A stretch of 43,059 nucleotides of DNA, from the NCBI GenBank assembly GCA_034430255.1, contig DAOUEU010000046.1, forward strand, positions 1 to 43,059, read 5' to 3'. The position numbers were made by a program, and so were the translations under genes. Under the pieces are notes generated by a model. It did no database searches. It was not told the DNA's origin and saw only the letters and a program-made list of their open reading frames with translations. This document shows, piece by piece, positions 1 to 21,350 of this stretch. How positions within the stretch are numbered: the stretch's first letter is position 1; each line of letters begins with the position of its first letter. The DNA is from Dehalococcoidia bacterium (GTDB lineage Bacteria; Chloroflexota; Dehalococcoidia; E44-bin15).

Positions 1-40
1 CTTGAGGCAGTGGAATAGGCATCCTTCCGATGCGAGACAT
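1..40 (-). CDS. rplF: 50S ribosomal protein L6, N-terminal 13 codons only (gene runs off the window)
   Basis: The reverse strand reads tGGAGGaaattg ATG TCT CGC ATC GGA AGG ATG CCT ATT CCA CTG CCT CAA, giving MSRIGRMPIPLPQ, the canonical L6 N-terminus. It starts 12 nt after the rpsH stop and is in the expected spc-operon position. It is missing from the ORF track because it is truncated by the window edge. Confidence 0.75.
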   Translation of the reverse strand, partial: MSRIGRMPIPLPQ

Positions 41-52
41 CAATTTCCTCCA

Positions 53-448
53 TTACCATATATAACAGAGTAGCTCACCACCTACCCCCTCTCGCCACGC
101 CTGCTTCCCGACCATCACCCCCTTTGGTGTAGAGAGAATGGCGATGCCAAGACCACCATAAACTCGGGGGATCTCCTTCCGCTGAACATATATCCTGAGC
201 CCTGGCTTGGAGATCCTCTTGAGACCGGTGAGCACAGGCTCCTTCTTATCCGTGTATTTGAGGTGTACTTTAATTACCCGCTGCGGCTTGCCCTTCAATA
301 CCTCATAATCCTGGATAAAGCCTTCCTCCCTCAGAATTTTAGCAATGGAAAGCTTCATCCTTGAGGAGGGTATGAGAGTAAAATCGTGCCTGGCAAGAAG
401 GGCATTCCTTATCCTAGTTAACATATCGGCGATCGGGTCTGTAACCAT
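53..448 (-). CDS. rpsH: 30S ribosomal protein S8
   Basis: The ORF 53..463 contains [16 protein letters not shown]..., typical of S8. I chose the ATG at 448 (M6 of the longest ORF), which is preceded by GAGGTGA. The longer form would overlap rpsN. Confidence 0.95.
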
Positions 449-459
449 CGCTTCACCTC

Positions 460-645
460 TCACCAGCTAGATTTTCTCACCCCTGGGATCTGTCCTTTGA
501 GAGCCAGTTCCCTGAAGCAGATGCGGCACAGCCCAAACCGCCGTATATATGCTCTCGGTCTGCCACAACGGCTGCAGCGATTCCTTTTTTGAACTTTATA
601 CTTTGGTTCTCGTTGTGCCTTTATGACTTTCGATAACTTTGCCAT
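460..645 (-). CDS. rpsN: 30S ribosomal protein S14, type Z (zinc-binding, 61 aa)
   Basis: [61 protein letters not shown] carries a CxxC...CxxC motif and has the 61-aa length typical of Zn-type S14. The start is the ATG at 645 inside the longer ORF 460..696. Confidence 0.95.
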
Positions 646-732
646 TTTCTCGCTCTTCTCATCCTCAGTGTTAGCCAGTAATGAGAACTCTGGCAACTGG
701 ATTCATCTCGCCCTTAAATTCTTTCTACCCCT

Positions 733-1278
733 TTAATCTCTCGAGAACGGCATGCCCAGGAGCTCAAGTAGTCTCTTACCCTCCTCATTAGTGCGGGCTG
801 TGTTTACTATCGAAATCTCCAGCCCTCTAACCTTGTCTACCTTATCGTACTCGATCTCAGGGAAGATAATCTGCTCTGCCAATCCCAGGGTGTAATTACC
901 CTGGCCATCGAAGGAGTTTCGAGGCATTCCCTGAAAGTCACGAATGCGTGGCAATGTGATATTTACCAGTTTATCAAGGAAATCATTCATCCGAGCTCCT
1001 CGCAATGTTACCATCATCCCAACCGGCATTCCCTGACGCACCTTAAAACCAGAAATAGAGCGCTTTGCCCTGGTAATCACAGCATGCTGACCTGTGATGG
1101 CGGCGAGATCCCTCTCCGCCGCCTCTAGTGCGTGGGTTTGTTGCGTCGCCTCACCCAGCCCAATGTTGACTACCACTTTCTCCAGGCGAGGTACCTGCAT
1201 AACGCTCTTATAGCCATACTCGCTCATCAAGGTGGGAATGACCTCTTTTTGATACCTCTCTTTCAATCGGGATGTCAA
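733..1278 (-). CDS. rplE: 50S ribosomal protein L5
   Basis: (M)[43 protein letters not shown] matches the L5 N-terminus. The TTG start at 1278 overlaps the rplX TGA (TTGA) and has AGAGGTGA 5 nt upstream. The N-terminus of the longest ORF (to 1305) is read-through of the rplX 3' end. Confidence 0.93.
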
Positions 1279-1586
1279 TCTATCACCTCTTGGCAGCGGC
1301 AGCACACCCTCACCCTTTTGCCATCTTCCAAGATGTGAGAACCGAGGCGTATGGGATGATTACACTTGGGGCATAGTAGCATTACATTAGAAACATGGAG
1401 TTTGGCCTCGTGCTCGATTATACCTGCTTGCCTTACTGTGCCTCGCGGCTTGGTGTGACGCTTCACTACGTTGATACCCTCCACTACCAAACGACCCTCT
1501 TTTTGAAATGACTGGCGAACCTTCCCCTTTTTACCTTTATCCTTACCGGCAATAACGACCACGGTATCGTCTTTTTTTATCTTCAT
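1275..1586 (-). CDS. rplX: 50S ribosomal protein L24 (KOW domain plus CPKC...CCRC zinc ribbon)
   Basis: [23 protein letters not shown] is a KOW motif. The C-terminus has a Cys4 ribbon, as in Thermus-type L24. The operon position is as expected. Confidence 0.95.
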
Positions 1587-1587
1587 C

Positions 1588-1956
1588 CTATAATACCTCA
1601 GGGGCCAGTGAGAGTATCTTCATGAAGTTCTTCTTCCTTAGTTCATGGGCCACCGGACCGAAGATACGGGTTCCTTTAGGATTGTTCTTGTCGCTGAGGA
1701 TCACGGCAGCGTTTTCATCAAACCTGATGTAAGAACCATCGTTGCGCCGGTAGGGCTTGGAGGTACGCACTATAACTGCCCGCACCACTTCACCCCTTTT
1801 TACTGCTCCCCCAGGCGTTGCCTCCTTTACTGAAGCTACGATAATATCCCCCACTCGAGCATACCTCTTTCGAGTACCACCGGGAACGTTAATACACGTA
1901 ATGCTCTTGGCCCCGGTGTTATCGGCGACCCTTACTCTGGTCATGTGCTGGATCAT
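1588..1956 (-). CDS. rplN: 50S ribosomal protein L14
   Basis: [17 protein letters not shown]...ILSLAPEVL is canonical L14. The start overlaps the rpsQ stop. Confidence 0.97.
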
Positions 1957-2222
1957 GCCGGCTCCTCCTTCTGTAATATCTCCACCACCCGCCAGCGTTT
2001 ATCCTTTGACAGAGGGCGCGTTTCCTCGATCCGTACCACATCACCGATACGGCAGGTATTTTGCTCATCATGAGCCTTGAACTTATAGATTCGCCTTACT
2101 CGTTTCTTATATAGCGGATGTGCACTATAGGATTCAACTGTCACAACGACGGTCTTATCCATCTTGTTGCTGACCACGCATCCTGTCCTTCTTTTTCTTT
2201 TCCTGTTATCTTCTGCTACCAA
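1953..2222 (-). CDS. rpsQ: 30S ribosomal protein S17
   Basis: ...[21 protein letters not shown]...[23 protein letters not shown] matches S17. The start is the TTG at 2222, and this start is uncertain. Confidence 0.9.
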
Positions 2223-2229
2223 AGCACCT

Positions 2230-2430
2230 TCACTCCTCTATTGAGAGCTCCTTTTCCCTTATAATTGTCTTGATCCGGGCGATCTTCTTCCTCGTATTGC
2301 GGATCTCATGGTAATTAAGCAGTTGTCTGGTGGCCAGGCGAAATCTTAGATTAAATAGCTCTCGATAGGACTCACTGAGCTTCTTTTTTAGATCCCCCAA
2401 ACTAAGCTCACGTATCTCCTGTATCTTCAA
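2230..2430 (-). CDS. rpmC: 50S ribosomal protein L29
   Basis: (M)[36 protein letters not shown] matches L29. The TTG at 2430 lies 1 nt after the rplP TAG, with AGGGGGG upstream. An alternative ATG at 2457 would overlap rplP by 26 nt. The ORF-track start at 2523 is over-extended. Confidence 0.88.
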
Positions 2431-2431
2431 C

Positions 2432-2866
2432 CTACGAACCCCCCTGGTGCGGGACATCGGTATCCCGCCGTAAGAATCTGGTTGGTATGGGTAGTTTATG
2501 AGATGCCAAGCGCATTGCTTCACGGGCTGCTTCTTCCCTAACGCCAGCGATCTCGAAGAGGACCCTCCCGGGTTTAGTTACACAAACCCAATGGTCCACC
2601 GTGCCCTTGCCACTACCCATACGGGTCTCGGCAGGCTTTGAGGTTACTGGTTTATCTGGGAAGACTCTGATCCAAACCTTGCCACCACGCTTTACATGGT
2701 GAATAATGGCGCGCCTTGCCGCCTCAATCTGCCGTGAAGTGAGCCAGCAAGCCCCCTGGGCTTGAAGTCCATACTCGCCAAATGACAGAGTATTGCCAGC
2801 GTGTGCCACTCCCCGGCGACGACCGCGATGCTGTTTTCGATACTTTACCCGGCTAGGTTGTAACAT
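2432..2866 (-). CDS. rplP: 50S ribosomal protein L16
   Basis: [19 protein letters not shown]... is canonical L16. Confidence 0.97.
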
Positions 2867-2889
2867 GACCCTATCCTATAACCAGCCTG

Positions 2890-4056
2890 CTAACCCTCTT
2901 TTTTATCATGTGCCTCTAAATTGTCCTCTTCCTCTGCCTTGGGCTTCTGCTTTGCCGTGGTCTTCTTCTTTGGCTTCGTCTCCATCGCGGGCACCTCTTT
3001 AACTCCGGCCTCTTTCTCTCCCTTAGGCTCTTCCACTGCCTTGGGCTTCTGCTTTGTCGTGGTCTTCTTCTTTGCCTTTATATCCGCCTCGGGCGCCTCT
3101 TTTATATCAGCCTCTTTATCTACCTTAGCCCCTTCAACTGCCTTGGGCTTCTGCTTTGCCGTGGTCTTCTTCTTTGCCTTTATATCCGCCTCGGGCGCCT
3201 CTTTTATGTCAGCCTCTTTATCTACCTTAGCCCCTTCCACTGCCTTGGGCTTCTGCTTTGCTTTAACCTCCACCACGGGCTTCTTCTCCACCTTAGCCTC
3301 TTCCACAATCTCTTCCTTAACCCCTTCCGCTATCTTAGTCTCTTCCTCCTCCTCGATCTCAGACTCCTCAATCCCTTCTTGTTCCGCTAGGGGTGCCACT
3401 ATCGGGGCTTCAATAGGGAGCTTTTCACGCTCGGGAATGATATCACCCTTATAAATCCATACCTTGACTCCGGTACAACCCAGAGTTGTATGCGCAACAG
3501 CTATGGCAAAATCGATATCTGCCCGTAGGGTATGAAGGGGCACCCTCCCCCGATACAATGTCTCCTTCCTTGAATACTCAGAACCAGTAAGTCTACCTGA
3601 GCATGTGACCTTTATCCCTTGTGCACCACCGTCCATAGCTCGGGAGATCGCCTGCTTCATGGCACGTCTGTGTGAAATTCGCCGCTGGATCTGCTGTGCG
3701 ATGCCCCTTGCTACCAGATAAGCATCCTGCTCGGGCCGCGCAATTTCCAGAATATTCAGTCGTACTCTTTTTCCAGCGACCCGCTCCAAGATAAGCCTCA
3801 TCTCATCGACCCGCTGTCCACCTCTGCCGATAACGATCCCTGGCCTTGCCGTATAGATGGTTACCGTCACCTGATTGGCAGCACGCTCGATCTCAACGCG
3901 CGATACATCATCTGCAGCATAATTCGACTCGATGGCTTTTCGTATCTTGATATCCTCCTGCAATAGCTCTGTATAGTGCTTATCGGCATACCACTTAGCC
4001 TGCCAATCCTTGCTTATACCGAGTCTGAATCCTATCGGGTGAACCTTTTGCCCCAA
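2890..4056 (-). CDS. rpsC: 30S ribosomal protein S3 with a roughly 180-aa C-terminal acidic/Lys-rich repeat extension (388 aa)
   Basis: [24 protein letters not shown]... has the KH and S3-C core up to about residue 208. An EEEE-rich segment follows, then [34 protein letters not shown] repeats. The ATG directly abuts the rplV stop. Confidence 0.95.
2935..3261. repeat. In-frame 102-bp (34-codon) tandem repeat, about 3.2 copies, inside the 3' part of rpsC
   Basis: The unit head tgccttgggcttctgctttg recurs at 2935, 3037, 3139 and 3241, an exact period of 102. Copies 3037-3138 and 3139-3240 differ at only about 3 positions. Copy 2935-3036 has diverged after the first ~38 nt. The last copy is only 21 nt. 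Confidence 0.9.
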
Positions 4057-4392
4057 TTATTCCTCCTCTTTAACTACCACGGTTATATGGCTGGAGCGTT
4101 TAAGGATCGGTTTTACTCGTCCCCGCGGTCCCGCGCGAAAGCGCTTCATACTACGCCCACCATCGATAAAGATTTGCACAATCCTGAGATCCGACGGCGT
4201 CATCTCGAAGTTATTCTCGGCATTGTCAGCGGCCGACTTCACCACCTTGGCTACAGTACGAGCCGCCGGTGAAGGTAGAAATCTCAGAATATTCAACGCA
4301 TCCTCCACCTTCCTACCCCGTATCGCATCTGCCATGGGACGCAATTTACGAGGCGACCTCCCGATATATCTTGCGGTAGCTTGTACCTCCAT
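4057..4392 (-). CDS. rplV: 50S ribosomal protein L22
   Basis: MEVQATARYIGRSPRKLRPMADAIRGRKVEDALNILRF matches L22. Confidence 0.96.
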   Translation of the reverse strand: MEVQATARYIGRSPRKLRPMADAIRGRKVEDALNILRFLPSPAARTVAKVVKSAADNAENNFEMTPSDLRIVQIFIDGGRSMKRFRAGPRGRVKPILKRSSHITVVVKEEE

Positions 4393-4405
4393 AATGCCTA
4401 AATAC

Positions 4406-4705
4406 CTACTTCTTAGTCCGCTTCTTAAATGTGGCTACCCGCTCCGATTTAGCCGAATGTCCTCTGAAGGTTCTGGTGAAGGCAAACTCACCCAGCTTAT
4501 GCCCTACCATATTCTCGGTGATAAATATAGGTACGTGACGCCTGCCGTCATGAACACCAATAGTATGTCCTATCATATCGGGGAGGATAGTCGAGGCACG
4601 CGACCATGTCTTTAATACTGCCTTCTGTCCCGACGCATTTAGCGCCTCCACCCGTTTTACCAGTTTGGAGTCTACATAGGGTCCCTTCTTAATGGATCTA
4701 GACAT
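4406..4705 (-). CDS. rpsS: 30S ribosomal protein S19
   Basis: [19 protein letters not shown]...[16 protein letters not shown] matches S19. Confidence 0.97.
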
Positions 4706-4779
4706 CTCTTATACCTCTCACCTGCACCTCAAGCTGCTACATATCGATAAATAGCCCGGGGTAGACTGAGCTGCTTACC

Positions 4780-5604
4780 TCATTTCCTCCGCTTAACTAT
4801 CATGCGATCGCTGAGCTTGTTTCTGCGGGTGACATAGCCCAGCGCTGGCTTTCCCCAAGGGGTCTTGGGACCGGGCAAACCAATGGGGGATCTCCCCTCT
4901 CCCCCACCATGGGGGTGAGCACGGGGGGACATCGCCGAGCCGCGCACTTCGGGGCGGATCCCCAGGTGCCGCTTTCGCCCCGCCTTACCCAGCTTAATAT
5001 GCTGATGGTCGACATTGCCCACCTGACCGATTGTGGCAAAGCACTCTACATGAATTCGCCTTATCTCGCCGGAGGGCATCCTGATCAGTGCATGGCTATC
5101 CTCTTTAGCCATGAGCTGGGCACTACCACCGGCGCCCCTTACTAACTGCCCTCCTTTACCTCGGTGAAGCTCGATATTATGGATGGCTGTGCCTGTGGGT
5201 ATGGCTTTTAGGGGCAGCGAATTGCCTATCTTTATCTCGGCATTGCCACCTGCCATAACGGCGTTGCCCACCTCAAGGCCTAGGGGTGCGATTATGTATC
5301 GCTTCTCCCCATCGGCGTAGTGAATGAGTGCGATTCGCGCTGAGCGGTTGGGATCGTATTCGATAGAGGCCACCTCGCCGCGGATACCCACCTTATCTCG
5401 CTTGAAGTCGATAACGCGATACATTCTCTTTGCACCACCTCCGCGATGGCGTACCGTGATCCGTCCCTGGTTGCTTCTTCCCCCCTTCTTTCTTAAGGGC
5501 TTAAGTAGCGATTTCTCCGGCTTGGTTTTAGTAATTTCCTCAAAGGTGGCACCGGTCATCCCCCTGCGCCCTGGCGATGTGGGTTTATATACCTTAAGCG
5601 GCAC
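4780..5604 (-). CDS. rplB: 50S ribosomal protein L2
   Basis: (M)[15 protein letters not shown]...HPHGGGEGR matches L2. The start is a GTG with AGGGGGG upstream. Confidence 0.97.
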
Positions 5605-5801
5605 CCTTGCCCCCCTGTTCGAAATTAGCTCTTGAATCGCATTTATAAAATTTTAATAATCCTGGCGGTTTCATTTTATTAATTGGGCATACAAGTGAGG
5701 ATATCTTTCTGTCACCTGTTATCCCTGAGTATAATATACCGTTATCGCTTCTCTTCATTTCACATCTGTCGCCCGGCATGGGCAGTCTATAAAATAGGTC
5801 C

Positions 5802-6086
5802 TTATCCCCCCTCGAAGAACTCGATCTTCTGCCCCGGCTTGAGGGTGACCACAGCCTTCTTCCAGGGAGATGTCTGGCTACGTCTTCTGCCTGGCCCGCG
5901 CCATTTGGGGGGCATTGTTATCACATTCACCTGTATTACCTTGACCTGAAACGAAAGCTCTACCGCCTGCTTGATCTGCTGCTTACTGGCATTTGGAGCC
6001 ACCTCAAATGTGTATTTATCTCGCTGCTGAAGCGCGGTGCTCTTCTCCGAGACTATAGGGCGTCGCAATATTTCCAGGATCTGCAT
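5802..6086 (-). CDS. rplW: 50S ribosomal protein L23
   Basis: MQILEILRRPIVSEKSTALQQRDKYTFEVAPNASKQQIKQAVE matches L23. Confidence 0.95.
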   Translation of the reverse strand: MQILEILRRPIVSEKSTALQQRDKYTFEVAPNASKQQIKQAVELSFQVKVIQVNVITMPPKWRGPGRRRSQTSPWKKAVVTLKPGQKIEFFEGG

Positions 6087-6177
6087 TTTTCTTTTTGCTC
6101 CCTTTTAGCTAGTCTCCAAAGATAACCGCGCTATCCATATTCATCTGCCGGCGAACTATCTATACACTATTTTATGC

Positions 6178-6828
6178 TCAGGTCTTGACCGGCTTCCTTA
6201 GCTTTGATGTCCCCATCTCTTCCACATGCTGCACCGCCGCCAGGGTGAGCACCAGTTTTTGGTGGGAAAGTAGATCGCCGACATTTAGCATATTGGCGGG
6301 CAGTATCTTCGTCCGTTCAAGATTCCGAGCCGATTTATAAACATTTAGATCGGGCTCGGCGGTGACAATAAGTGCCGAGGGGCCTACTCCTAATGCCGCC
6401 AGGATACTGGACATCTCCTTTGTCTTGGGCTCGCTCAAGACAAGATCGTCCACTACGATCACTTCACCACTGGCTACCTTTGCCGATAGTGCGCACCTAA
6501 GGGCTAGGCGGCGCATCTTCTTGGGCATCGCCTGACGATAGCTCCTGGGGTGGGGACCGAAGATTATGCCCCCACCACGAAGTAGCGGTGATGTTTCACT
6601 ACCACGCCTCGCTCGTCCGGTTCCTTTCTGGCGGAAGGGCTTCCGCCCGCCGCCGGCAACCTGTGCTCGAGTCTTGGTACTTGCTGTGCCCTGACGGGCA
6701 TTGGCTAGCTGCATCACTAGAGCCTGGTGCAATACCGCATCGTTCTGGGATACCCCAAAGACGTCATCATCGAGTTCGATGTGGTCGACAACCTCGCCTT
6801 TTACATTATGAACGGTAACCTGCGCCAC
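6178..6828 (-). CDS. rplD: 50S ribosomal protein L4
   Basis: (M)AQVTVHNVKGEVVDHIELDDDVFG...RKPFRQKGTGRARRGS matches L4. The GTG at 6828 lies 1 nt after the ABC ATPase TGA, with GAGGAG 7 nt upstream. The ORF-track ATG at 6867 would overlap the ATPase gene by 38 nt. Confidence 0.93.
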   Translation of the reverse strand: MAQVTVHNVKGEVVDHIELDDDVFGVSQNDAVLHQALVMQLANARQGTASTKTRAQVAGGGRKPFRQKGTGRARRGSETSPLLRGGGIIFGPHPRSYRQAMPKKMRRLALRCALSAKVASGEVIVVDDLVLSEPKTKEMSSILAALGVGPSALIVTAEPDLNVYKSARNLERTKILPANMLNVGDLLSHQKLVLTLAAVQHVEEMGTSKLRKPVKT

Positions 6829-6829
6829 T

Positions 6830-7588
6830 TCAATACTCCTCAGGGAGGATCTCGGATAACCTGCCATCCTCCAAGTACAGTGCCCTTTCGGCGTTATCGG
6901 CTAAGCGGCGGTCGTGGGTCACAATAATAAAGGTTTTATCACGCTCCCTGTTTAGCCGTTGCATAAGCTCGATAATCTCCGCACCCGTCTTGGAATCCAG
7001 ATTACCGGTGGGTTCATCGGCAAGGATAACGGATGGATTCAGGATCAGGGCACGGGCTATTGCCACCCGTTGCTGCTCGCCTCCAGATAGCTCCCCCGGC
7101 TTGTGATGCATGCGTCCTTTAAGTCCAACCATCTCCAAGAGCCTCTCAGCCCTTTTCTCATACCGCTTGTTTCTCCTTATGGGCAACACCGGCATGAGCA
7201 CGTTTTGCAGGGCATTCATGGTCGGCACCAGATAATATGTCTGGAAAATGAAGCCCAGTTTCTCGCGGCGGATTTTATAAAGTCTCCGCTCCGGCACCAT
7301 GCTGGTCACCACCCGATCGATAATCACCCTTCCCTCGGTAGGGCGATCCAGAGCACCCAGCATATTGAGGAGGGTGGTCTTGCCGCTTCCCGATGGTCCC
7401 AGTACAGCTATAATTTCCCCTCTCCTCACCCTGAGGTTCACCCCCTTGAGCGCCGCCACCCTAGTGGCCCCCCTGCCATATATTTTAGTGAGCTTTTGGG
7501 CAACCACAATGCTCTCCCGCTGCTCCTCAAACGACTTCACTCCAGAGTGGTTCTCCTGCCCTTTATGATATTCACTCAAGTCTCTCAC
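6830..7588 (-). CDS. ABC transporter ATP-binding protein, LolD/MacB-type
   Basis: Walker A is GPSGSGKTTLLNMLG, the signature motif is LSGGEQQRVAIARAL and Walker B is ILADEPTGNLD. The GTG start directly abuts the permease TAG. There is a ~30-aa N-terminal extension, so the start is uncertain. Confidence 0.92.
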   Translation of the reverse strand: MRDLSEYHKGQENHSGVKSFEEQRESIVVAQKLTKIYGRGATRVAALKGVNLRVRRGEIIAVLGPSGSGKTTLLNMLGALDRPTEGRVIIDRVVTSMVPERRLYKIRREKLGFIFQTYYLVPTMNALQNVLMPVLPIRRNKRYEKRAERLLEMVGLKGRMHHKPGELSGGEQQRVAIARALILNPSVILADEPTGNLDSKTGAEIIELMQRLNRERDKTFIIVTHDRRLADNAERALYLEDGRLSEILPEEY

Positions 7589-8779
7589 CTACAAAGCCCT
7601 CAGGCTTTCTATGGGGCTTACCCTCGCCGCCCGCACTGCCGGGTAGAGCCCGCCTACTACACCCACAAGAATACCGAAGGCGCATATCTCAATAACCAAC
7701 ACCCACGTAATAACGGCAATATCCATATTAATGTAGCTATCTATGCCCTTTCCCGCTCCATAGCCAATGGCAAGCCCCACCAGAGCACCCAGCAGGCCAA
7801 TGGTGATCGATTGAAACACCACCGAGGTGATGATGTTCCTGTTGGACCAGCCCGATGCCTTGAGTATGCCGAACTCCTTTGTCCTCTCGATAACAGAGAT
7901 GAGCATGACAATAAATATGGAGACACCGCCGGCAATCGCCGCAACCAGGGATACGATCCACAGGAAGCTCTCCATGGTGCCCATCATTTCCGAGAAGCTC
8001 TCCAGCATTTCTCTGGCGACGGTGGTGCTGACAGGAACGTCTCTATCATCAAACATCGTTTCTATTTCATCTGCTATATCGTTCACGTATTCCCTATCGG
8101 TAGCCCTTACAGTGATGTAATTCACCTCATTGGAAGCAATGGTCGGCATCAGTTTCCTGGCGGTGTCTATATCGGTATATATGCCGTAATCATAGAAGGT
8201 TTTTCCCGTCTCGAATATGCCCACCACGGTGAGCGTGATAGTACTACTACCACTGCCCAGCACAGCCATTTCCATGGTACCACCGACCTCTGCATAGTCC
8301 CCTCCCGCGGCACCTATTTCAGCCAATTTACCTATGATGACCTCATTCTCGCTGGCTGCGGTTAGGGGTTTGCCCTCTCCGGTAATGATAGTTTTGTTTG
8401 GATCCTCCTCGGTCTGACGCTCCAGATCCACACCATACATGAGTACACCCATAGGGTCCCCGAATGGATAATCTTTGGCGGGTATAAAATACGTTATCTC
8501 TGGGTTCGCCCTTTCTACGTTCTTTATATTCGCTATCTCATCTGCATAATAAATGGGCATGCCTATTCCACTGGGCACCATAAATCCCATAGAAGCTGCC
8601 TTGGGATAAACAGCGATACCCGCTGCCAGTTCATCCATCATGTCGTCCATCTGTTGGTTCATGCCCGTGGAAATGCTGAGTAACACCGTCATCAGGGCAA
8701 TGCCCAGAGCAGTACCCATGATGGCGAAAATGGCGATACCCTTTCTCCTGAAGGCGTTGGAAATGGCGAATCTAAACAA
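7589..8779 (-). CDS. ABC transporter permease, MacB/FtsX family (1 TM, ~230-aa extracytoplasmic domain, then 3 TM)
   Basis: The N-terminus is FRFAISNAFRRKGIAIFAIMGTALGIALMTVLL. The C-terminal FtsX module reads IERTKEFGILKASGWS...LYPAVRAARVSPIESLRAL. I chose the TTG at 8779, which overlaps the rplC stop (cTTGtTTAG). The first 32 codons of the ORF-track ATG at 8875 are simply an alternative frame of the rplC 3' end. Confidence 0.88.
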   Translation of the reverse strand: MFRFAISNAFRRKGIAIFAIMGTALGIALMTVLLSISTGMNQQMDDMMDELAAGIAVYPKAASMGFMVPSGIGMPIYYADEIANIKNVERANPEITYFIPAKDYPFGDPMGVLMYGVDLERQTEEDPNKTIITGEGKPLTAASENEVIIGKLAEIGAAGGDYAEVGGTMEMAVLGSGSSTITLTVVGIFETGKTFYDYGIYTDIDTARKLMPTIASNEVNYITVRATDREYVNDIADEIETMFDDRDVPVSTTVAREMLESFSEMMGTMESFLWIVSLVAAIAGGVSIFIVMLISVIERTKEFGILKASGWSNRNIITSVVFQSITIGLLGALVGLAIGYGAGKGIDSYINMDIAVITWVLVIEICAFGILVGVVGGLYPAVRAARVSPIESLRAL

Positions 8780-9404
8780 GGATTTCCCTTTGGCCTGTCG
8801 ATTTCCTGACGGTAACCAGCCCGTTTCTGGCACCGGGCACTCCACCGCGAACCAGGAGCAGGTTGCGGTCAGCATCCGCCTCGATCACCTTGAGGTGACG
8901 CACTGTCACCCGCTCACTCCCCATATGACCAGGCATCTTTTTCCCCTTGAGCACCCTGCCCGGGCTGGTGGTTGCCCCTATGGAGCCCGGGGCGCGATGA
9001 CGGTCTGATTGACCGTGGGTCTTGGGGCCACCAGCGAAATGGTGACGCTTCACCACTCCGGCGAAGCCTTTCCCCTTAGAGATACCGGTGACATCGACAA
9101 GGTCGCCGGGCTTGAAGATGCTCACATCCACAACCTGTCCTAGCTGTATAGAAGCGATATCTTCAGCCGCAAACTCCCTGAGGTGCTTAAACATACCCAA
9201 CTTTTTGAGATGCCCCTTCTCTGGAGAATTGAGGCGTTTCGCCTCGCCAAAGCCAAGCTGAATGGCATCGTAGCCCTCTTTTTCCACCCGCTTAATCTGT
9301 GTCACCAGGCACGGGCCGGCGGCGATGGCGGTAACCTGCGCCACCGTTCTATCATCCATAAAAATCTGGGTCATCCCCAGCTTTCGCCCGATAATTCCTT
9401 GCAT
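8772..9404 (-). CDS. rplC: 50S ribosomal protein L3
   Basis: MQGIIGRKLGMTQIF...GKGFAGVVKRHHFAGGPKTHGQSDRHRAPGSIG matches L3. Confidence 0.97.
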   Translation of the reverse strand: MQGIIGRKLGMTQIFMDDRTVAQVTAIAAGPCLVTQIKRVEKEGYDAIQLGFGEAKRLNSPEKGHLKKLGMFKHLREFAAEDIASIQLGQVVDVSIFKPGDLVDVTGISKGKGFAGVVKRHHFAGGPKTHGQSDRHRAPGSIGATTSPGRVLKGKKMPGHMGSERVTVRHLKVIEADADRNLLLVRGGVPGARNGLVTVRKSTGQREILV

Positions 9405-9499
9405 TATCTTTTCGAGCTATCCGTGCCCTTTCTTTCTATTCACTCGCTTTTTACACACATGTATGGCCTTGTTCTCTATCGAGTCGCTCTTTCTAACTC

Positions 9500-9808
9500 C
9501 TAAAGCTTGATCTCTATATCGACCCCTGCCGGTAGATCCAGCCGTGTCAGCACATCGACCGTCCTGGAGGAGGGCTCAAGGATATCGATCAGTCGCTTGT
9601 GGGTACGAATCTCAAACTGCTCCCTGGAGTCCTTGTCAACATGGGGAGAGCGGATTACACAGAATTTTTTAATACGTGTAGGCAGTGGTACCGGGCCTAC
9701 TACCTTAGCCCCGGTCTGCTCTGCGGCCTCCACGATTTGCCCGGCCGATTGATCCAATATGCGATGGTCGTATGCCTTAAGTTTAATGCGAATCTTCTGT
9801 TTGGGCAT
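9500..9808 (-). CDS. rpsJ: 30S ribosomal protein S10
   Basis: [21 protein letters not shown]...RLIDILEPS matches S10. The ATG overlaps the fusA TGA (TGATG). Confidence 0.97.
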
Positions 9809-11889
9809 CAGGCCACTCCCCCTACTTTGACTGTAAGCTGAACAGCCAGAGGTTGGGGCAACTCCTCATAGCGATGTAACTCCATGGCGAAGGTCGCTCT
9901 CCCTTGGCTCATCGACCTGAGGTCGGTAGCATAGCCGAAGGTCTCTGCGAGAGGGATAAAGCACTGGATTATCTTGGTGTCACCACGGCTATCTAAACTG
10001 GTGACATGCCCCCTCCTCGAGTTAAGGTCTCCAAGGATATCGCCCATGAATGCTTCTGGAGTGACTACTTCTATTTTCATAACAGGCTCAAGGATCGTGG
10101 GCTTGGCCTTCTTCACTCCTTCCTTTAGCGCCATAGCACCAGCCATCTTGAAGGCTATCTCAGATGAATCAACCTCATGAAAGCTACCATCATATAGGGT
10201 AGCTCTGATATCTACCAGGGGGTAGCCAGCCAGAACGCCACCCTCCATAGCCCCCCTGACCCCGCTCTCAACAGCCGGTATGTATTGCTTGGGAATAATA
10301 CCACCTTTAATTCCGTTAACAAACTCAAAGCCGCTCCCACGTTCTCCTGGGTGAAGCTCTATCCATACATGACCGTATTGCCCCCGGCCACCAGACTGTT
10401 TGATGAATCTGCCCTCCACCTTTACCGGCACCGTAATGGTCTCTCTATAGGAAACCCGGGGCTTGCCAACATTTGCCCCTACCTGGTACTCACGCAGCAG
10501 CCGTTCTACGATGACCTCGAGGTGAAGCTCACCCATGCCTGAAATAATCGTCTGCCCTGTTTCTTGGTCATATCGTGTAATGAAAGTGGGATCCTCCTGG
10601 GATAATTTAGTCAGGGCATCATCTAGGCGATCCTGATCTACCCTTGATTTTGGCTCGATTGTCACTGATATCACCGGCTGTGGGAAGCGAATCGTCTCCA
10701 GTACGATGGGCGCACTACTGTGACATAGCGTATCACCGGTGAAAGTGTCTTTCAAACCCGAGGTGGCTGCGATATCACCTGCCTCGACCAGCTTGATCTC
10801 CTCACGACGATTGGCATGCATCTGCAGCAACCTCCCGATTCTCTCCCGACGCTCCCTTCTGGAGTTATAGACCTGAGCCCCAGACTCTATCTTCCCTGAA
10901 TAAACCCTGAAATAGACCAGTCTGCCGATAAAAGGGTCGGAGACTACCTTAAATGCCAGGGCAGCGAAGGGAAGCCCATCGGAAGGGGAGCGCTTAAGCT
11001 CCTTCCCATTCCTGGGGTCAATGCCTATCACCGGTGGCACATCAATGGGTGAGGGAAGATATGAAACAACGGCATCCAGCATGGGCTGGACACCGTTGTT
11101 CCGCAGGGCACTGCCACAAAGAACAGGTACCACGCTATTTGCTATGGTAGCACGCCTGAGGGCTTCTTCAATAGCTGAGTTATTTATAGCTCTCCCATCT
11201 AAATAGAGAGTCATCAACTGATCATCGCTTTCGGCGAGCCTCTCTATCATCTCATCTCTATACCTAGCTGAGACCTCCTCGTAATCATGAGGAATATCTT
11301 CTGCCACGGGGCTTCTACTTGGATCAACTGAGAAAACCCAGACCCTTTGCGCCACTAGATCGATAACACCCTTAAAGGAGTTCTCAGTTCCCAGTGGTAA
11401 TTGTATTGGTAGGGCATTTGCACCAAGCCGCTCCCTAATCATGGCTACGGTACGGTGGAAATCAGCACCTAAGCGGTCCATCTTGTTCACGAAGCAAATC
11501 CGGGGAACACCGTAGCGATCCGCCTGCCTCCAGACCGTCTCCGACTGGGGCTCAACGCCAGCCACTGCATCGAAGACAACGACGCCCCCATCGAGCACCC
11601 GAAGACTTCGTTCCACCTCTGCGGTAAAGTCAACATGCCCGGGGGTATCGATAATGTTGATGCGATGGTCCAGCCACTGGCAGGTAGTAGCGGCAGCGGT
11701 AATTGTTATCCCCCGCTCTCTCTCCTGCGCCATCCAGTCCATGACTGTGGTGCCATCGTCCACATCACCCAGCTTATAGGTGCGGCCGGTATAGTAAAGT
11801 ATCCTCTCAGTAAGTGTCGTTTTGCCCGCATCGATATGGGCAATGATACCGATATTCCTGATACGCTCCAGATTAAATGTCCTTGACAT
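9808..11889 (-). CDS. fusA: Elongation factor G
   Basis: [31 protein letters not shown]...DTPGHVDF...NKMD are GTPase motifs. The length (~693 aa) and position after rpsG fit EF-G. I chose the ATG at 11889; an alternative GTG lies at 11901. Confidence 0.95.
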
Positions 11890-11894
11890 AGTCC

Positions 11895-12365
11895 TCACCA
11901 CCGATAATGAACAAAGGCCCGATTTGCCTCCGCCATCCTATGGGTATCATCGCGCTTTTTAATAGTGGCCCCCTGCCGCTGTGCAGCATCCAAGACCTCC
12001 GCTGCTAGCTTCTCTGCCATTGACTTACCCCCACGACCCCGAGCTGCTTCGATGAGCCAGCGTATTGCCAGAGCCAGGCCACGATCAGCCCTCACCTCTA
12101 CGGGCACCTGATAAGTAGCACCACCAACTCGACGTGGCTTAACCTTAAGAAGTGGGGTGGCATTCTTAACCGCTCGCTCAAGGGTATCCACAGGTTGCTC
12201 TTTCACCTGCTCCGCAATAATATTGAGGGCATCATATACGATTCGCTCCGCGGTACTCTTCTTTCCCCTGGTCATCACCCTATTGATAAGTCTGGACACT
12301 ACTACATTCTGATAACGCGGGTCAGGGGATATATCCCTTTTTGTAGTCCTTGCTCTTCTGGGCAT
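11895..12365 (-). CDS. rpsG: 30S ribosomal protein S7
   Basis: [20 protein letters not shown]...AFVHYRW matches S7. The ATG at 12365 lies 1 nt after the rpsL TAA. The ORF-track start at 12455 is over-extended into rpsL. Confidence 0.95.
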
Positions 12366-12366
12366 T

Positions 12367-12795
12367 TTACTCTCCGCCGGAGCGCCTGGACTGCTTCGTC
12401 CCATACTTGCTGCGTCCCCGCTGCCTATTCTCCACACCACCGGTATCCAGAGCACCCCTAATAATGTGATACCTCACCCCAGGCAGATCCTTTACACGAC
12501 CACCTCGAAGTAGGACGACCGAGTGCTCTTGAAGGGTATGACCCTCACCAGGTATATAGGCAGTCACCTCCATCCCATTAGTTAGCCGAACGCGTGCCAC
12601 CTTGCGCAATGCTGAATTGGGTTTCTTCGGTGTTACCGTCTTGACCTGTGTGCAGACACCTCGCCTCTGTGGAGATCCCTCCACCTGCAGCATCCGCCCC
12701 TTTAGCGCATTGTAAGTATAGTGCAGTGCCGGCGTCCTGGTCTTAGTACCTGCCTTCTTACGCCCCTTACGAACCAGTTGGTTAACGGTTGGCAC
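12367..12795 (-). CDS. rpsL: 30S ribosomal protein S12
   Basis: (M)[13 protein letters not shown]...[20 protein letters not shown]...[14 protein letters not shown] matches S12. The GTG at 12795 has GGAGG 5 nt upstream. Confidence 0.95.
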
Positions 12796-12910
12796 ATATA
12801 CCTCCAAATCATAGTTAAAGGCCGAAAGCCTTAAAGCTGAGCTGCCTTACTGGCCCGGCCCTCATGACCTTTCGACCTCTGTCAGGCTAGCCTCTGAGCA
12901 CTAGCTTATT

Positions 12911-12939
12911 AATTTACCACTATTTAATAAATGTGTCAA
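12911..12939 (-). promoter_or_regulatory. Putative sigma-70-type promoter of the str/S10/spc superoperon
   Basis: The reverse strand reads TTGACA (12939-12934), then a 17-nt spacer, then TAAATT (12916-12911). This lies ~115 nt upstream of the rpsL GTG. A AAGGC-cgaaa-GCCTT hairpin sits in the leader just before the RBS. Confidence 0.45.
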
Positions 12940-12977
12940 GTATTTGAATATGTAATAGAGAGTATGATGCAAGGGAG

Positions 12978-13230
12978 GTGAGGTGGGAGGGTGTAGACAT
13001 CGTAGTTAAGACGGAGGGGTTACCTAAAAGAGGGCCCTGCCCTTGTTGCGGATGCATATACTTTTATAGCCACTCTAGGGGCAAAATAAGGAAGTTGCTC
13101 TATAGCTGGAGCGATGGCAGGAGTATCTGTCTTGAGCTACGACGCAAGCCCGGCCGGTGCCTTAAATGAGGATACTTTTACAGCTAGGGCGAAGGCCTAT
13201 TACGAACATACTCTAGTGTTACCAGGGCGC
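12978..13230 (+). pseudogene. Possible decayed N-terminal fragment of an ISL3-family transposase (zf-ISL3-like)
   Basis: The 63-aa ORF contains ...GPCPCCGCIYFYSHSRGKIRKLLYSWSDGRSICLELRRKPGRC, which resembles the ISL3 N-terminal zinc-finger pattern CPxCG...h...R.l..l...g..v.L.l...R..C. After a stop, the similarity may continue in the +1 frame (LNEDTFTARAKA). No DDE domain and no terminal inverted repeats were seen. Confidence 0.3.
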
Positions 13231-13261
13231 AAACTCCTTGACTGTTACCCTAGTGAGGCTT

Positions 13262-14047
13262 ATGCTAAACCTGATGAAGCGTCGACTCGATCTGCTTCTG
13301 GTAAAACGTGGACTGACAGAGAGCAGGGTCAAGGCAAACGCCCTGATTATGGCGGGCGATGTTCTGGTCAATGAGAGGGTAATCGACAGACCATCCACCC
13401 AGGTGAGGGAGGATGTCCGCATCCGCCTGCGCCATAAGCCTCTCTTCGTGAGCAGAGGGGGCATTAAGCTAGCCCATGCCCTGGATTTGTTTCACATAGA
13501 TGTTAGTTCACTGGTGGCACTCGATGTCGGCGCATCAGCCGGGGGATTCACCGACTGTCTGCTGAAACGTGGCGCCAGCAGGGTATATGCTGTCGATGTC
13601 GGCTATGGACAACTAGACTACCGATTGAGGGTGGAGCCCCGGGTGGTTATCATGGAACGGTTGAACGCTCGCTATCCCTTCGCATTGCCCGAACCGGTAG
13701 ATTGTGCAACTGTAGACCTATCCTTCATCTCACTGGAGAAGGTAGTGCCCAATGTTACTAAATTGGTAAAGCCAGGGGGCAATGTAATCTGCCTGGTCAA
13801 GCCCCAGTTTGAGTTAGGACGGGCTCAAGTGGGCAGGGGAGGACTGGTCAAGGATCCCTTGCTTCACGCCCGTGCCCTGGGGAGATTTATCTCCTGGGCA
13901 ATCGAATTGGGTGAAATGGAATTGAGTGAGAGCGGACAAAGTATGAGGGGGGAATACGAAAGAGGGTTTAGGCTCATCGGGCTTACCCCGTCACCTATAC
14001 TGGGGGCCTCAGGAAATCGCGAATTTTTCGTTCTATTTAAGGTGTAG
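13262..14047 (+). CDS. tlyA: TlyA-family rRNA 2'-O-methyltransferase (hemolysin A-like): S4 domain plus FtsJ-like methyltransferase
   Basis: MKRRLDLLLVKRGLTESRVKANALIMAGDVLVNERV is an S4-like motif, and ALDVGASAGGFTDCLLKRGA is a SAM-binding motif. The start is ambiguous among TTG 13238, ATG 13262 and ATG 13274. Confidence 0.88.
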   Translation: MLNLMKRRLDLLLVKRGLTESRVKANALIMAGDVLVNERVIDRPSTQVREDVRIRLRHKPLFVSRGGIKLAHALDLFHIDVSSLVALDVGASAGGFTDCLLKRGASRVYAVDVGYGQLDYRLRVEPRVVIMERLNARYPFALPEPVDCATVDLSFISLEKVVPNVTKLVKPGGNVICLVKPQFELGRAQVGRGGLVKDPLLHARALGRFISWAIELGEMELSESGQSMRGEYERGFRLIGLTPSPILGASGNREFFVLFKV

Positions 14048-19811: not shown

Positions 19812-21350
19812 ATGCCTAATGCCGTCCTGGTAATCGATATGGTGCGGGGTTTCTTTGAGGATGGCAGTCCCCTCTACTTAGGTGAGCGGGCACAGCGCAT
19901 TATACCCAATATACAGAGACTTCTGGAGCAAGAGGTAGAGAAAGGCTCCAGGGTATTTTTCCTCTGTGACCATCATGCCCCTGATGACCCGGAGTTCGCC
20001 ATGTTTCCCCCTCATTGTATTGCGGGAACCGCTGAGACAGAGATCATCCCCGAGCTTGCTCATTTTTCGAAAAGTCCTGGAGAGATTATTCCCAAGAGGC
20101 GCTTTAGCTGCTTCTTAGAAACAGACTTAGAGGAAAAGCTAAAGGCATTTGCCCCAGAGAAGCTAATAGTATGCGGCGTTGTCACAGATATCTGTGTCCT
20201 TCATACGGTATTCGATGCCAGGGGTCGAGACTATGAGGTAGATGTACCCCTGGATTGCGTTGCCTCCTTCGATGAACGAGCCCACCATTTTGCCCTGGAA
20301 CATATGGAGAAAGTCCTCGGTGCCAAGCTGGTTAGCCCCCAAACGTCAGTTAAGGTTGACCAAGCTAGATTTTTGACCTCCGATGCTACCCTCTCCGGGG
20401 AAACCGCGGATATTTACTTCGCCCGAACCGTGGAGATTTTACAAAAAGAAGGTCTAAATCCAACGGCAACAATGGAGATATTTCCATCAAAGGCGGGAGT
20501 CCTCTGTGGCATTGAGGAGGTCAAGGCCCTGCTCTCCAGGGTACTACCCCCGGGTAGTGAGGTATGGGCGCTTGCTGAAGGCGAGCTCTTTCAAAGAAAA
20601 GAGGTAGTGCTGCGGATAACCGCGCCCTACCAGAGCTACGGCTTATATGAGACTACTATGTTGGGCATACTGGCCCATTGTAGCGGCTGGGCCACGGCAG
20701 CCAGAGAGTGCGCTGATGCTGCTCACGGGATCCCTATCATCAGTTTCGGAGTTCGCCACATCCACCCCTCGGTAGCTGGGGTGATGGACTATTCTGCTAT
20801 CGTCGGTGGCTGCACCGGCTGCTCCAGCATCGCCGGCGCGAAAATCGCCGGCACGGAGCCATCGGGGACCATGCCCCATGCCATGATCCTTATCATGGGT
20901 GACACTGCCCAGGCTACTGTCGCCTTCGATAAGCATATGCCTCCAGAGGTACCCCGCATCTCCCTGGTCGATACCTTCAAGGATGAGGTAGAGGAAAGTG
21001 TCATCGTTGCTCGAGCGCTTGAGGGGCGTCTCCAGGGAGTGCGCCTCGATACACCATCTGAGCGGGGTCGGGTCACCGCTGACCTGGTCAAGGAGGTTAG
21101 AGCCCATCTCGACCTGGCCGGCTTCAATAAAGTAAGCATCTTCGTCAGCGGGGGGCTTGACCCGGAGCGGATAAGATACTTTCTGGAAAATGGAGCCCCC
21201 GTCGATGGCTTTGGGGTGGGAAGCTACATCAGCGGCGCTAAGCCCATCGACTTCACAGCCGACCTCCACGATATAGAAGGGAAGCCCATTGCGAAGCGGG
21301 GCCGCCTTCCCGGGATCACCGCTAACCCAAACCTCAAGCAGGTTATGTAA
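19812..21350 (+). CDS. Fusion protein: N-terminal nicotinamidase/isochorismatase domain plus C-terminal nicotinate phosphoribosyltransferase (type II PRTase, archaeal/thermophile-like)
   Basis: Residues 1-~180 carry VIDM (Asp), CDHHAPDDPEFAMFPPHC (metal site), a Lys near IPKRRFS and TDICV (Cys), which is the nicotinamidase pattern. Residues ~185-512 carry ADIYFARTVEIL...ETTMLGIL...FGVRH...GTMPHA...LVDTF...GVRLDT...VSGGLD...FGVGS, which is the NAPRTase pattern. Confidence 0.82.
   Translation: MPNAVLVIDMVRGFFEDGSPLYLGERAQRIIPNIQRLLEQEVEKGSRVFFLCDHHAPDDPEFAMFPPHCIAGTAETEIIPELAHFSKSPGEIIPKRRFSCFLETDLEEKLKAFAPEKLIVCGVVTDICVLHTVFDARGRDYEVDVPLDCVASFDERAHHFALEHMEKVLGAKLVSPQTSVKVDQARFLTSDATLSGETADIYFARTVEILQKEGLNPTATMEIFPSKAGVLCGIEEVKALLSRVLPPGSEVWALAEGELFQRKEVVLRITAPYQSYGLYETTMLGILAHCSGWATAARECADAAHGIPIISFGVRHIHPSVAGVMDYSAIVGGCTGCSSIAGAKIAGTEPSGTMPHAMILIMGDTAQATVAFDKHMPPEVPRISLVDTFKDEVEESVIVARALEGRLQGVRLDTPSERGRVTADLVKEVRAHLDLAGFNKVSIFVSGGLDPERIRYFLENGAPVDGFGVGSYISGAKPIDFTADLHDIEGKPIAKRGRLPGITANPNLKQVM

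Follow-up and report, generated by a model that had tools for sequence, protein, structure and literature searches.

Within a 43,059-nucleotide (nt) stretch of the Dehalococcoidia bacterium assembly GCA_034430255.1 (positions 1 to 43,059 of contig DAOUEU010000046.1; lineage E44-bin15 of the Chloroflexota), hereafter the window, the S10 ribosomal-protein operon is split by two genes for an ATP-binding cassette (ABC) transporter. This 1.95-kb pair lies between rplC, which encodes L3 (8772..9404), and rplD, which encodes L4 and has a GTG start (6178..6828); both flanking genes score above their NCBIfam cut-offs (TIGR03625, 265 bits, and TIGR03953, 249 bits) and, like all features described below unless noted, lie on the reverse strand. 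A permease gene (7589..8779; 396 amino acids (aa) from a TTG start) comes directly after rplC and is followed by the gene for a LolD/MacB-type ABC ATPase (6830..7588), whose longest open reading frame (ORF), beginning at GTG 7588, encodes 252 aa. The S10 gene order is canonical except for this pair, which interrupts the contiguous run rpsJ-rplC-rplD-rplW-rplB-rpsS-rplV-rpsC, and related lineages without the pair keep the canonical rplC-rplD order. An initial annotation, made from the sequence alone, had placed a MacB/FtsX-type exporter between rplC and rplD, and the ORF coordinates together with the Pfam and NCBIfam matches bear this out.

The junctions are tight. The permease TTG (8779-8777), found in the sequence cTTGtTTAG, opens an 8-nt overlap that runs through the rplC TAG (8774-8772), and a Shine-Dalgarno-like motif, AAGGGA (8790-8785), lies within the last codons of rplC. 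The permease TAG (7591-7589) adjoins GTG 7588, leaving a gap of 0 nt between permease and ATPase. At the far end, the ATPase TGA (6832-6830) is separated by 1 nt from the rplD GTG at 6828, whose Shine-Dalgarno sequence, GAGGAG (6836..6841), lies 7 nt ahead of it, within the final codons of the ATPase gene. Most relatives have a conserved ATPase ATG 7-12 nt past the permease stop; the aligned codon of the window is TTG (7579-7577), preceded by a conserved TAGGTGA. The true ATPase start may accordingly be TTG 7579, 9 nt downstream of GTG 7588, which would widen the gap to 9 nt. Thus the overlap with rplC, the 1-nt gap before rplD, and the internal GAGGAG all stand as initially annotated, while the GTG start assigned to the ATPase may need correction; the junctions are tight either way, and their spacing leaves no room for a promoter or terminator of the pair's own.

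Both proteins carry the domains expected of their assigned family. The permease matches PF12704 (MacB_PCD; 58.5 bits against a cut-off of 27, E 1.5e-15) and PF02687 (FtsX; 68 bits against 25.5, E 9.9e-19). Its AlphaFold2 (AF2) model, with a mean predicted local distance difference test score (pLDDT) of 73.5 and values of 80-90 in the external domain, has helices at aa 2-51, 255-308, 313-350 and 359-385, giving four transmembrane (TM) segments, and a beta-rich domain at aa 54-254; the MacB-type periplasmic core domain, of about 220 aa, is placed between TM1 and TM2. The permease start is confirmed by relatives that have ATG or GTG at the aligned codon. At three loci (L003, L016 and L027) this codon is CTG, where others have TTG, GTG or ATG, and this suggests non-canonical initiation or a shifted start. 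The ATPase matches PF00005 (118.8 bits), completing the set of Pfam matches behind the MacB/FtsX-type assignment, and its motifs are intact in translation: Walker A GPSGSGKT, signature LSGGEQQR, Walker B ILADEPT with the catalytic glutamate, and H-loop VTHD. At its N-terminus, a variable extension of about 25-60 aa precedes the ABC core (7500-7588 in the window; also at L006, L017-L019, L021, L023, L024, L026 and L028); in deeper clades this extension looks coiled-coil-like, as in ...LQKKVDDLRSRL..., with a polybasic RKRRRR stretch at its end. At L005 (7195-8510), the ATPase frame extends to 8193 and the L4 match starts only at residue 57, which points to a frameshift or assembly error in that metagenome-assembled genome (MAG).

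The arrangement is lineage-wide. An independent JGI metagenome contig (L038) is 99.5-100% identical to the window across both junctions, and the same gene order occurs in about 40 other loci from different Dehalococcoidia. These observations settle the concern over chimeric assembly raised with the initial annotation, and comparison of S10 synteny among relatives makes clear that the window is not a single case. Nothing was found in favor of a contig-specific chimera or a recent mobile-element insertion: the order is common to dozens of divergent genomes, no repeats or mobility genes flank the pair, and its GC content and codon use match those of its flanks. We therefore rejected misassembly, and we likewise rejected recent horizontal insertion, since the composition matches and the insert is deeply conserved; the probability that remains for either is practically negligible.

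A scan based on the permease, covering one genome per GTDB species, returned 29 loci, and in 22 of them the permease directly follows rplC and/or the ATPase directly precedes rplD. All loci with an embedded pair come from Dehalococcoidia, Dehalococcoidales or Chloroflexota MAGs, with permease identity down to about 45%. Across them the rplC-permease distance spans -8 to +11 nt and the ATPase-rplD distance -2 to +10 nt, and a purine-rich Shine-Dalgarno sequence for rplD is kept inside the 3' end of the ATPase gene in every embedded locus. The ATPase core is 70-81% identical across loci in which EF-G is 66-87% and L4 60-81% identical, which indicates purifying selection comparable to that on the neighboring translation genes.

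To avoid the bias of searching with the permease itself, the distribution was sampled by L4. Where L4 is at least 71% identical to that of the window, the pair is present, whole or in part, in 17 of 20 loci; at 61-66% identity, it is present in 2 of 58, and the rest have rplD 1-57 nt past rplC. The L4 homologue searches returned only uncultured relatives and no cultured Dehalococcoides or Dehalogenimonas; in D. mccartyi, rplD presumably comes right after rplC. In neighbor-joining (NJ) trees of ribosomal proteins, lineages without the pair (L032/L035, L034 and L046) are nested among carriers, and the deepest-branching carriers, L023 and L028, group with a large clade that has no insert; these are simple NJ trees with midpoint rooting, hence the number of gains is uncertain. 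Taken together, the distribution is best explained if the pair entered between rplC and rplD in the forerunner of a large uncultured group within the Dehalococcoidia and was then passed on mostly by vertical inheritance. Apart from this clade, a homologous permease-ATPase pair (38% and 58% identity) with no ribosomal context is found at L022 (DASVHF010000025.1), which is labelled Candidatus Nanoarchaeia archaeon; it could reflect horizontal transfer or a mis-binned contig.

The two genes are conserved unevenly along their length. Judged by its mosaic pattern of identity, the extracytoplasmic domain of the permease (7996..8685; aa about 32-261) is a hypervariable cassette that is swapped by recombination between lineages. 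Between the window and L039, rpsJ, rplC, the ATPase gene and rplD are 92-100% identical at the nucleotide level, and identity falls to 48-77% over 8685-7996, with smaller dips at the outer loop between TM3 and TM4 (7755-7696) and at the N-terminal extension of the ATPase. A similar pattern separates L006 from L021: identity is about 95% in their flanks and 40-70% over about 700 nt of the segment encoding the periplasmic domain, and within the segment where these two diverge L006 matches L007 at 79-94%. Identity of Dehalococcoidia homologues to the window is 67-89% for TM1 and 71-85% for TM2-4, against 25-70% for the periplasmic domain; three distant loci have 44-58% TM identity. Over 100 homologues the mean identity is 78% in the TM segments and 49% in the periplasmic domain, which falls into about 12 types (60% single linkage), and the two are decoupled, as pairs with 90-95% TM identity cover 30-95% identity in the periplasmic domain. 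Under the MacB topology, the variable parts would be exactly those exposed outside the membrane. The GC content over the cassette (window 7800-8700) is 0.49-0.50, compared with 0.54-0.56 in the adjoining rplC and ATPase sequence, a dip that is consistent with an imported or relaxed segment.

Remnants found between rplC and rplD indicate that loss of the pair is common and that at least six lineages have degraded it independently. In L048, permease aa 1-148 form an in-frame chimera with ATPase aa 203-252, and a GEII microhomology marks the joint; because L048 is 98.3-98.6% identical to L050, whose pair is intact, this is a within-species deletion of 1.36 kb. In L052, permease aa 1-5 continue into the final ~35 aa of the ATPase, and in L051/L053 permease aa 1-39 are fused to its last 10 aa. 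About 10 N-terminal permease codons are left in L056, and in L032/L035 an ORF of 29 codons, whose ATG start overlaps the rplC stop, contains the final 14 codons of the ATPase gene. The L118 remnant fuses permease aa 1-6 to ATPase aa ~118-252 and contains an in-frame TGA. The pair is fully absent from L034 and L046, in which, as in the large group without the insert, rplD has its own Shine-Dalgarno sequence. Fusion is in frame in five of the six remnant lineages, and in four of them (L048, L052, L051/L053 and L032/L035) an uninterrupted ORF ends at the ancestral stop just before rplD. With five remnants whose frame can be read, the chance of at least four being in frame is about 0.045 (binomial), which gives weak support to selection on translational coupling into rplD.

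Some genomes have a second pair outside the operon. The L118 genome has an intact standalone permease-ATPase pair (L036; also L012) about 690 kb away on the same 1.2-Mb contig, and its embedded pseudogene is 79% identical to the embedded ATPase of L011 compared with 67% to its own standalone ATPase. The standalone pair is thus an older paralogue, and the idea that it was copied recently from the embedded pair was rejected on these figures. In one MAG an embedded copy (L017) coexists with a standalone one (L014/L037), which has a MarR-family gene directly upstream.

The wider operon offers one candidate signal for expression of the pair. The str genes rpsL, rpsG and fusA (9808..12795, with fusA at 9808-11889) run directly into rpsJ (S10; 9500..9808), and upstream of rpsL lies the best sigma-70-like site (12911..12939; TTGACA-17-TAAATT with an extended TG), by consensus match only, which is a candidate promoter of a fused str/S10 transcript. 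A scan for promoters and terminators found no excess inside the insert and none at the ABC junctions; a promoter-like 9/12 match at 6833-6805 is within chance expectation. An Rfam scan of positions 1-14000, operon spacers included, at E up to 0.1 matched no family. Codon adaptation was rejected as evidence on expression because codon bias in this genome is too weak: relative to the ribosomal-protein genes of the window, the index is 0.74 for the ABC genes, 0.753 +/- 0.017 for ribosomal proteins and 0.729 +/- 0.019 for other genes. The pair is probably co-transcribed with the str/S10 genes; we infer an rpsL-rpsG-fusA-rpsJ-rplC-...-rplD mRNA in which it would have no promoter or terminator of its own. 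Translation would proceed by re-initiation, from a weak TTG on the rplC stop, to an ATPase start 0-9 nt past the permease stop, to the strong rplD Shine-Dalgarno sequence in the 3' end of the ATPase gene, and the weak TTG, GTG or CTG start of the permease may limit output relative to the ribosomal proteins. The coupling envisaged at the outset is strengthened by the junction spacing, kept in every embedded locus examined, and by the in-frame deletion remnants.

Further features of the surrounding operon were noted. The str operon passes into the S10 operon without a break: the stop codon of fusA overlaps the rpsJ start at 9808, and no tuf gene separates the two. Downstream of rplD, rplW and rplB (4780..6086) follow in canonical S10 order, and then rpsS, rplV, rpsC, rplP and onward. 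Spacers elsewhere in the operon are long, with 95 nt between rpsJ and rplC (9405-9499), 91 nt between rplD and rplW (6087-6177) and 197 nt between rplW and rplB (5605-5801); spacer lengths in relatives run from 12 to about 105 nt. The S3 protein encoded by rpsC (2890-4056) is 388 aa long, with a KH and S3_C core at aa 37-201 and a Lys/Glu-rich C-terminal tail of about 185 aa (especially 2890-3450) that contains three near-identical repeats of about 33 aa. S3 ranges from 276 to 393 aa in relatives, and tail length thus varies within the clade. Away from the operon, a single 512-aa ORF on the forward strand (19812-21350) joins isochorismatase/nicotinamidase-like and quinolinate/nicotinate phosphoribosyltransferase domains and may be a fused NAD-salvage enzyme.

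In terms of family, the pair has the features of the type VII (MacB/FtsX) superfamily, namely a four-TM permease, a MacB_PCD domain, an FtsX C-terminal TM domain and a cognate ATPase with intact motifs. By analogy with that superfamily, it would work by mechanotransmission without a transmembrane channel. A profile search of PDB sequences ranked the Streptococcus pneumoniae non-canonical ABC permease 5xu1 first (2.3e-23), followed by MacB, LolF, YtrF and LolC/E. Foldseek likewise placed 5xu1 at the top (E 9.5e-19, TM-score 0.64), then LolE, MacB, YtrF, HrtB, BceB and YbbP, and all of the top 50 Foldseek matches shown are MacB-fold proteins. The NCBIfam equivalogs for LolCE, LolD, MacB, FtsX, FtsE and DevC/DevA all score below their cut-offs. 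By these profile scores, the pair belongs to the type VII superfamily and to no characterized subfamily within it.

Comparison with each subfamily leads to the same placement. MacB (NF007826) scores 52 bits with the permease and 204 bits with the ATPase, against a cut-off of 966; the permease and ATPase genes are separate, and, as initially annotated, no membrane-fusion partner adjoins them, for rplC and rplD flank the pair directly in all loci and no membrane-fusion protein (MFP), HlyD or OEP family is encoded in the window. The Lol models reach 74.9 bits against 362.45 (TIGR02212) and 246.4 against 307.75 (TIGR02211), and there is a single permease gene. The FtsX models NF038346 and NF038347 give 19.5 bits against 250 and 225, the FtsE model TIGR02673 gives 197 against 264.85, and the external domain is MacB_PCD. 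As for BceAB-type transporters, the permease has 396 aa and four TM helices rather than about 650 aa and ten, no two-component system adjoins the pair, and BceB is only a weaker structural match.

In regard to function, we favor, with middling confidence, an accessory type VII ABC mechanotransducer that acts at the cell surface and is expressed through the str/S10 transcript. The complex would be (permease)2(ATPase)2, a stoichiometry that we infer, in which cytoplasmic ATP hydrolysis moves the external domain and a substrate is expelled or extracted at the outer face of the membrane. Its role would be an accessory one in surface protection or conflict, for example, the removal of membrane-active peptides, toxins or hydrophobic compounds. 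Position in the operon would make expression constitutive and proportional to growth and would imply no action on the ribosome. We favor protection or conflict over core biogenesis because the external cassettes are swapped, the embedded copy is repeatedly lost, a paralogue is linked to a MarR-family gene, and the nearest solved relative is 5xu1, which we take to function in resistance to antimicrobial peptides. Several considerations weigh against this reading. Transporters for resistance or defense are usually inducible, and constitutive expression tied to ribosomal genes is uncommon among them; the case for co-transcription and coupling is one of spacing. A housekeeping function in the envelope would likewise account for the high conservation of the TM segments and the ATPase and for the long time that the pair has stayed in the operon. 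In the MacB family the TM core is generally better conserved than the extracytoplasmic domain, so variability as such is a weak argument, and it is the sharp mosaic breakpoints alone that demonstrate recombination. A single locus shows the MarR association, and the substrate class is not readable from sequence.

Alternatively, the pair may be a housekeeping machine of envelope biogenesis that extracts or releases a lipid-anchored component, such as a lipoprotein, a glycolipid or an S-layer anchor, with a demand that scales with growth, as for secY in the spc operon. This is a possible, though doubtful, explanation. The embedded position has been kept over deep divergence, and conservation of the ATPase equals that of EF-G and L3; among the NCBIfam models, LolC/E and LolD come closest, with LolE and LolF high among the structural and sequence matches; and the sole checkable genome whose embedded copy has decayed still has an intact one elsewhere. 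Established knowledge also places secY, adk and map in ribosomal-protein operons. A core role fits poorly, however, with at least six independent degradations, one of them within a species (98.5% identical), and a hypervariable, recombining external domain would be unexpected for a conserved endogenous substrate. The Lol models remain far below their cut-offs, as given above, and the window shows no gene for a LolA-like partner. A different kind of explanation, which we consider unlikely, is that the ABC proteins are unimportant and that the segment is retained through constraint on rplD, as a translated bridge that brings ribosomes to the rplD start. The conserved Shine-Dalgarno sequence inside the 3' end of the ATPase gene in all loci and the predominance of in-frame fusions, four with an uninterrupted ORF, are what such a bridge predicts. 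Yet strong purifying selection acts along the whole of both intact genes, whose catalytic motifs are all preserved, an outcome that selection on a spacer alone would not yield; the L118 remnant has an in-frame stop; L034, L046 and the large insert-free group start rplD 1-57 nt past rplC from its own Shine-Dalgarno sequence; and standalone paralogues are maintained elsewhere.

The initial annotation had offered two functions of its own, and neither is sustained. The first was a ribosome-coupled pump for self-protection against ribosome-targeting antibiotics such as macrolides, pleuromutilins or peptides, sited by L3, L4 and L22 because these proteins line the sites where such drugs bind. Apart from significant PDB matches to MacB, only the MacB family name and the genomic position speak for it. 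MacB-fold pumps are known to act on periplasmic or outer-leaflet substrates rather than on cytoplasmic drugs; the nucleotide-binding domain (NBD) is unfused, and neither MacA nor TolC is encoded nearby; the embedded copy has disappeared repeatedly with no change in L3 and L4; and the variable part is the external domain. We regard this function as very unlikely. The second, an FtsEX-like module for division or cell-wall-hydrolase activation tied to growth rate, can point to the FtsX C-terminal Pfam domain and to FtsE among the ATPase matches, at 197 bits. It fails on the low FtsX and FtsE scores relative to their cut-offs and on the external domain, which is a MacB_PCD (Porter/Sabre) domain of about 220 aa, and no FtsEX structure is among the top 50 structural matches. 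The cultured Dehalococcoides of the same class are not known to have peptidoglycan. This function seems to us extremely improbable. A more speculative link to translation is also conceivable, if improbable: the ORF pair, which is long, weakly initiated and membrane-targeted, might act as a translational throttle or spacer that sets the ratio of L4 and downstream products to S10 and L3, possibly tethering nascent ribosomal-protein mRNA to the membrane, or it might export a ribosome-directed toxin or peptide, in which case the hypervariable external domain would follow toxins that themselves vary. The in-frame bridging mini-ORFs left after deletion are compatible with the throttle or spacer version.

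In the literature searched, no account turned up of an ABC transporter in the rplC-rplD interval, nor of this feature in Dehalococcoidia. The locus is an unusual operon setting built from a known protein family, and it is real and conserved in its lineage. Because the S10 operon has among the most rigid gene orders in bacteria, a stable transporter insertion within it is a rare natural experiment. A core ribosomal-protein operon can evidently tolerate 2 kb of unrelated, membrane-targeted coding sequence over long evolutionary time, and the graded series of in-frame deletion remnants provides a route to studying coupling into rplD. That cassette-like recombination is so clearly restricted to the exposed surface of a MacB-fold protein points to biotic pressure on these abundant, uncultured subsurface Dehalococcoidia. 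In practical terms, the insert alters the distance between L3 and L4 on which some marker-gene and synteny pipelines rely, and it could serve as a phylogenetic character for the clade.

Among known systems, that of 5xu1 is the closest. Like the pair described here, it combines a separate ATPase with a four-TM permease of about 400 aa and a MacB-type external domain in a host without an outer membrane; presumably it is Spr0694-0695. Identity is only about 18%, however, and the pneumococcal system has an adjoining MFP-like protein, Spr0693, in an ordinary operon, whereas the Dehalococcoidia pair has no partner gene and is located inside the S10 operon. MacAB-TolC shares the type VII fold, the Porter/Sabre periplasmic domain and the mechanotransmission architecture, but MacB has an N-terminal NBD fusion and needs both MacA and TolC, in contrast to the separate ATPase gene found here with no MFP or outer-membrane factor nearby. 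The LolCDE and LolDF systems resemble the pair in their separate LolD-type ATPase (the best NCBIfam match, 246 bits) and in the length and topology of the LolC/E/F permeases; they differ in that the pair scores far under the equivalog cut-offs, has one permease gene, lacks a LolA/LolB context and has a hypervariable external domain. The monoderm MacB-fold systems YtrEF, HrtBA, YknYZ and BceAB share the fold, and most of them have no outer-membrane partner. They protect against envelope stress, haem or antimicrobial peptides, are inducible through dedicated regulators, and lie outside ribosomal-protein operons; as matches they are weaker than 5xu1, and BceB has ten TM helices.

In regard to genomic setting, the secY-adk-map-infA genes of the spc operon are a precedent for a membrane-protein gene, secY, among ribosomal-protein genes, but the presence of secY, adk and map in such operons is near-universal and ancient. 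A further precedent is nrdHEF inside rpoBC in Lactobacillaceae, a rare lineage-specific insertion within an operon, and the other insertions described for this operon cluster lie between operons (PMC8046335).

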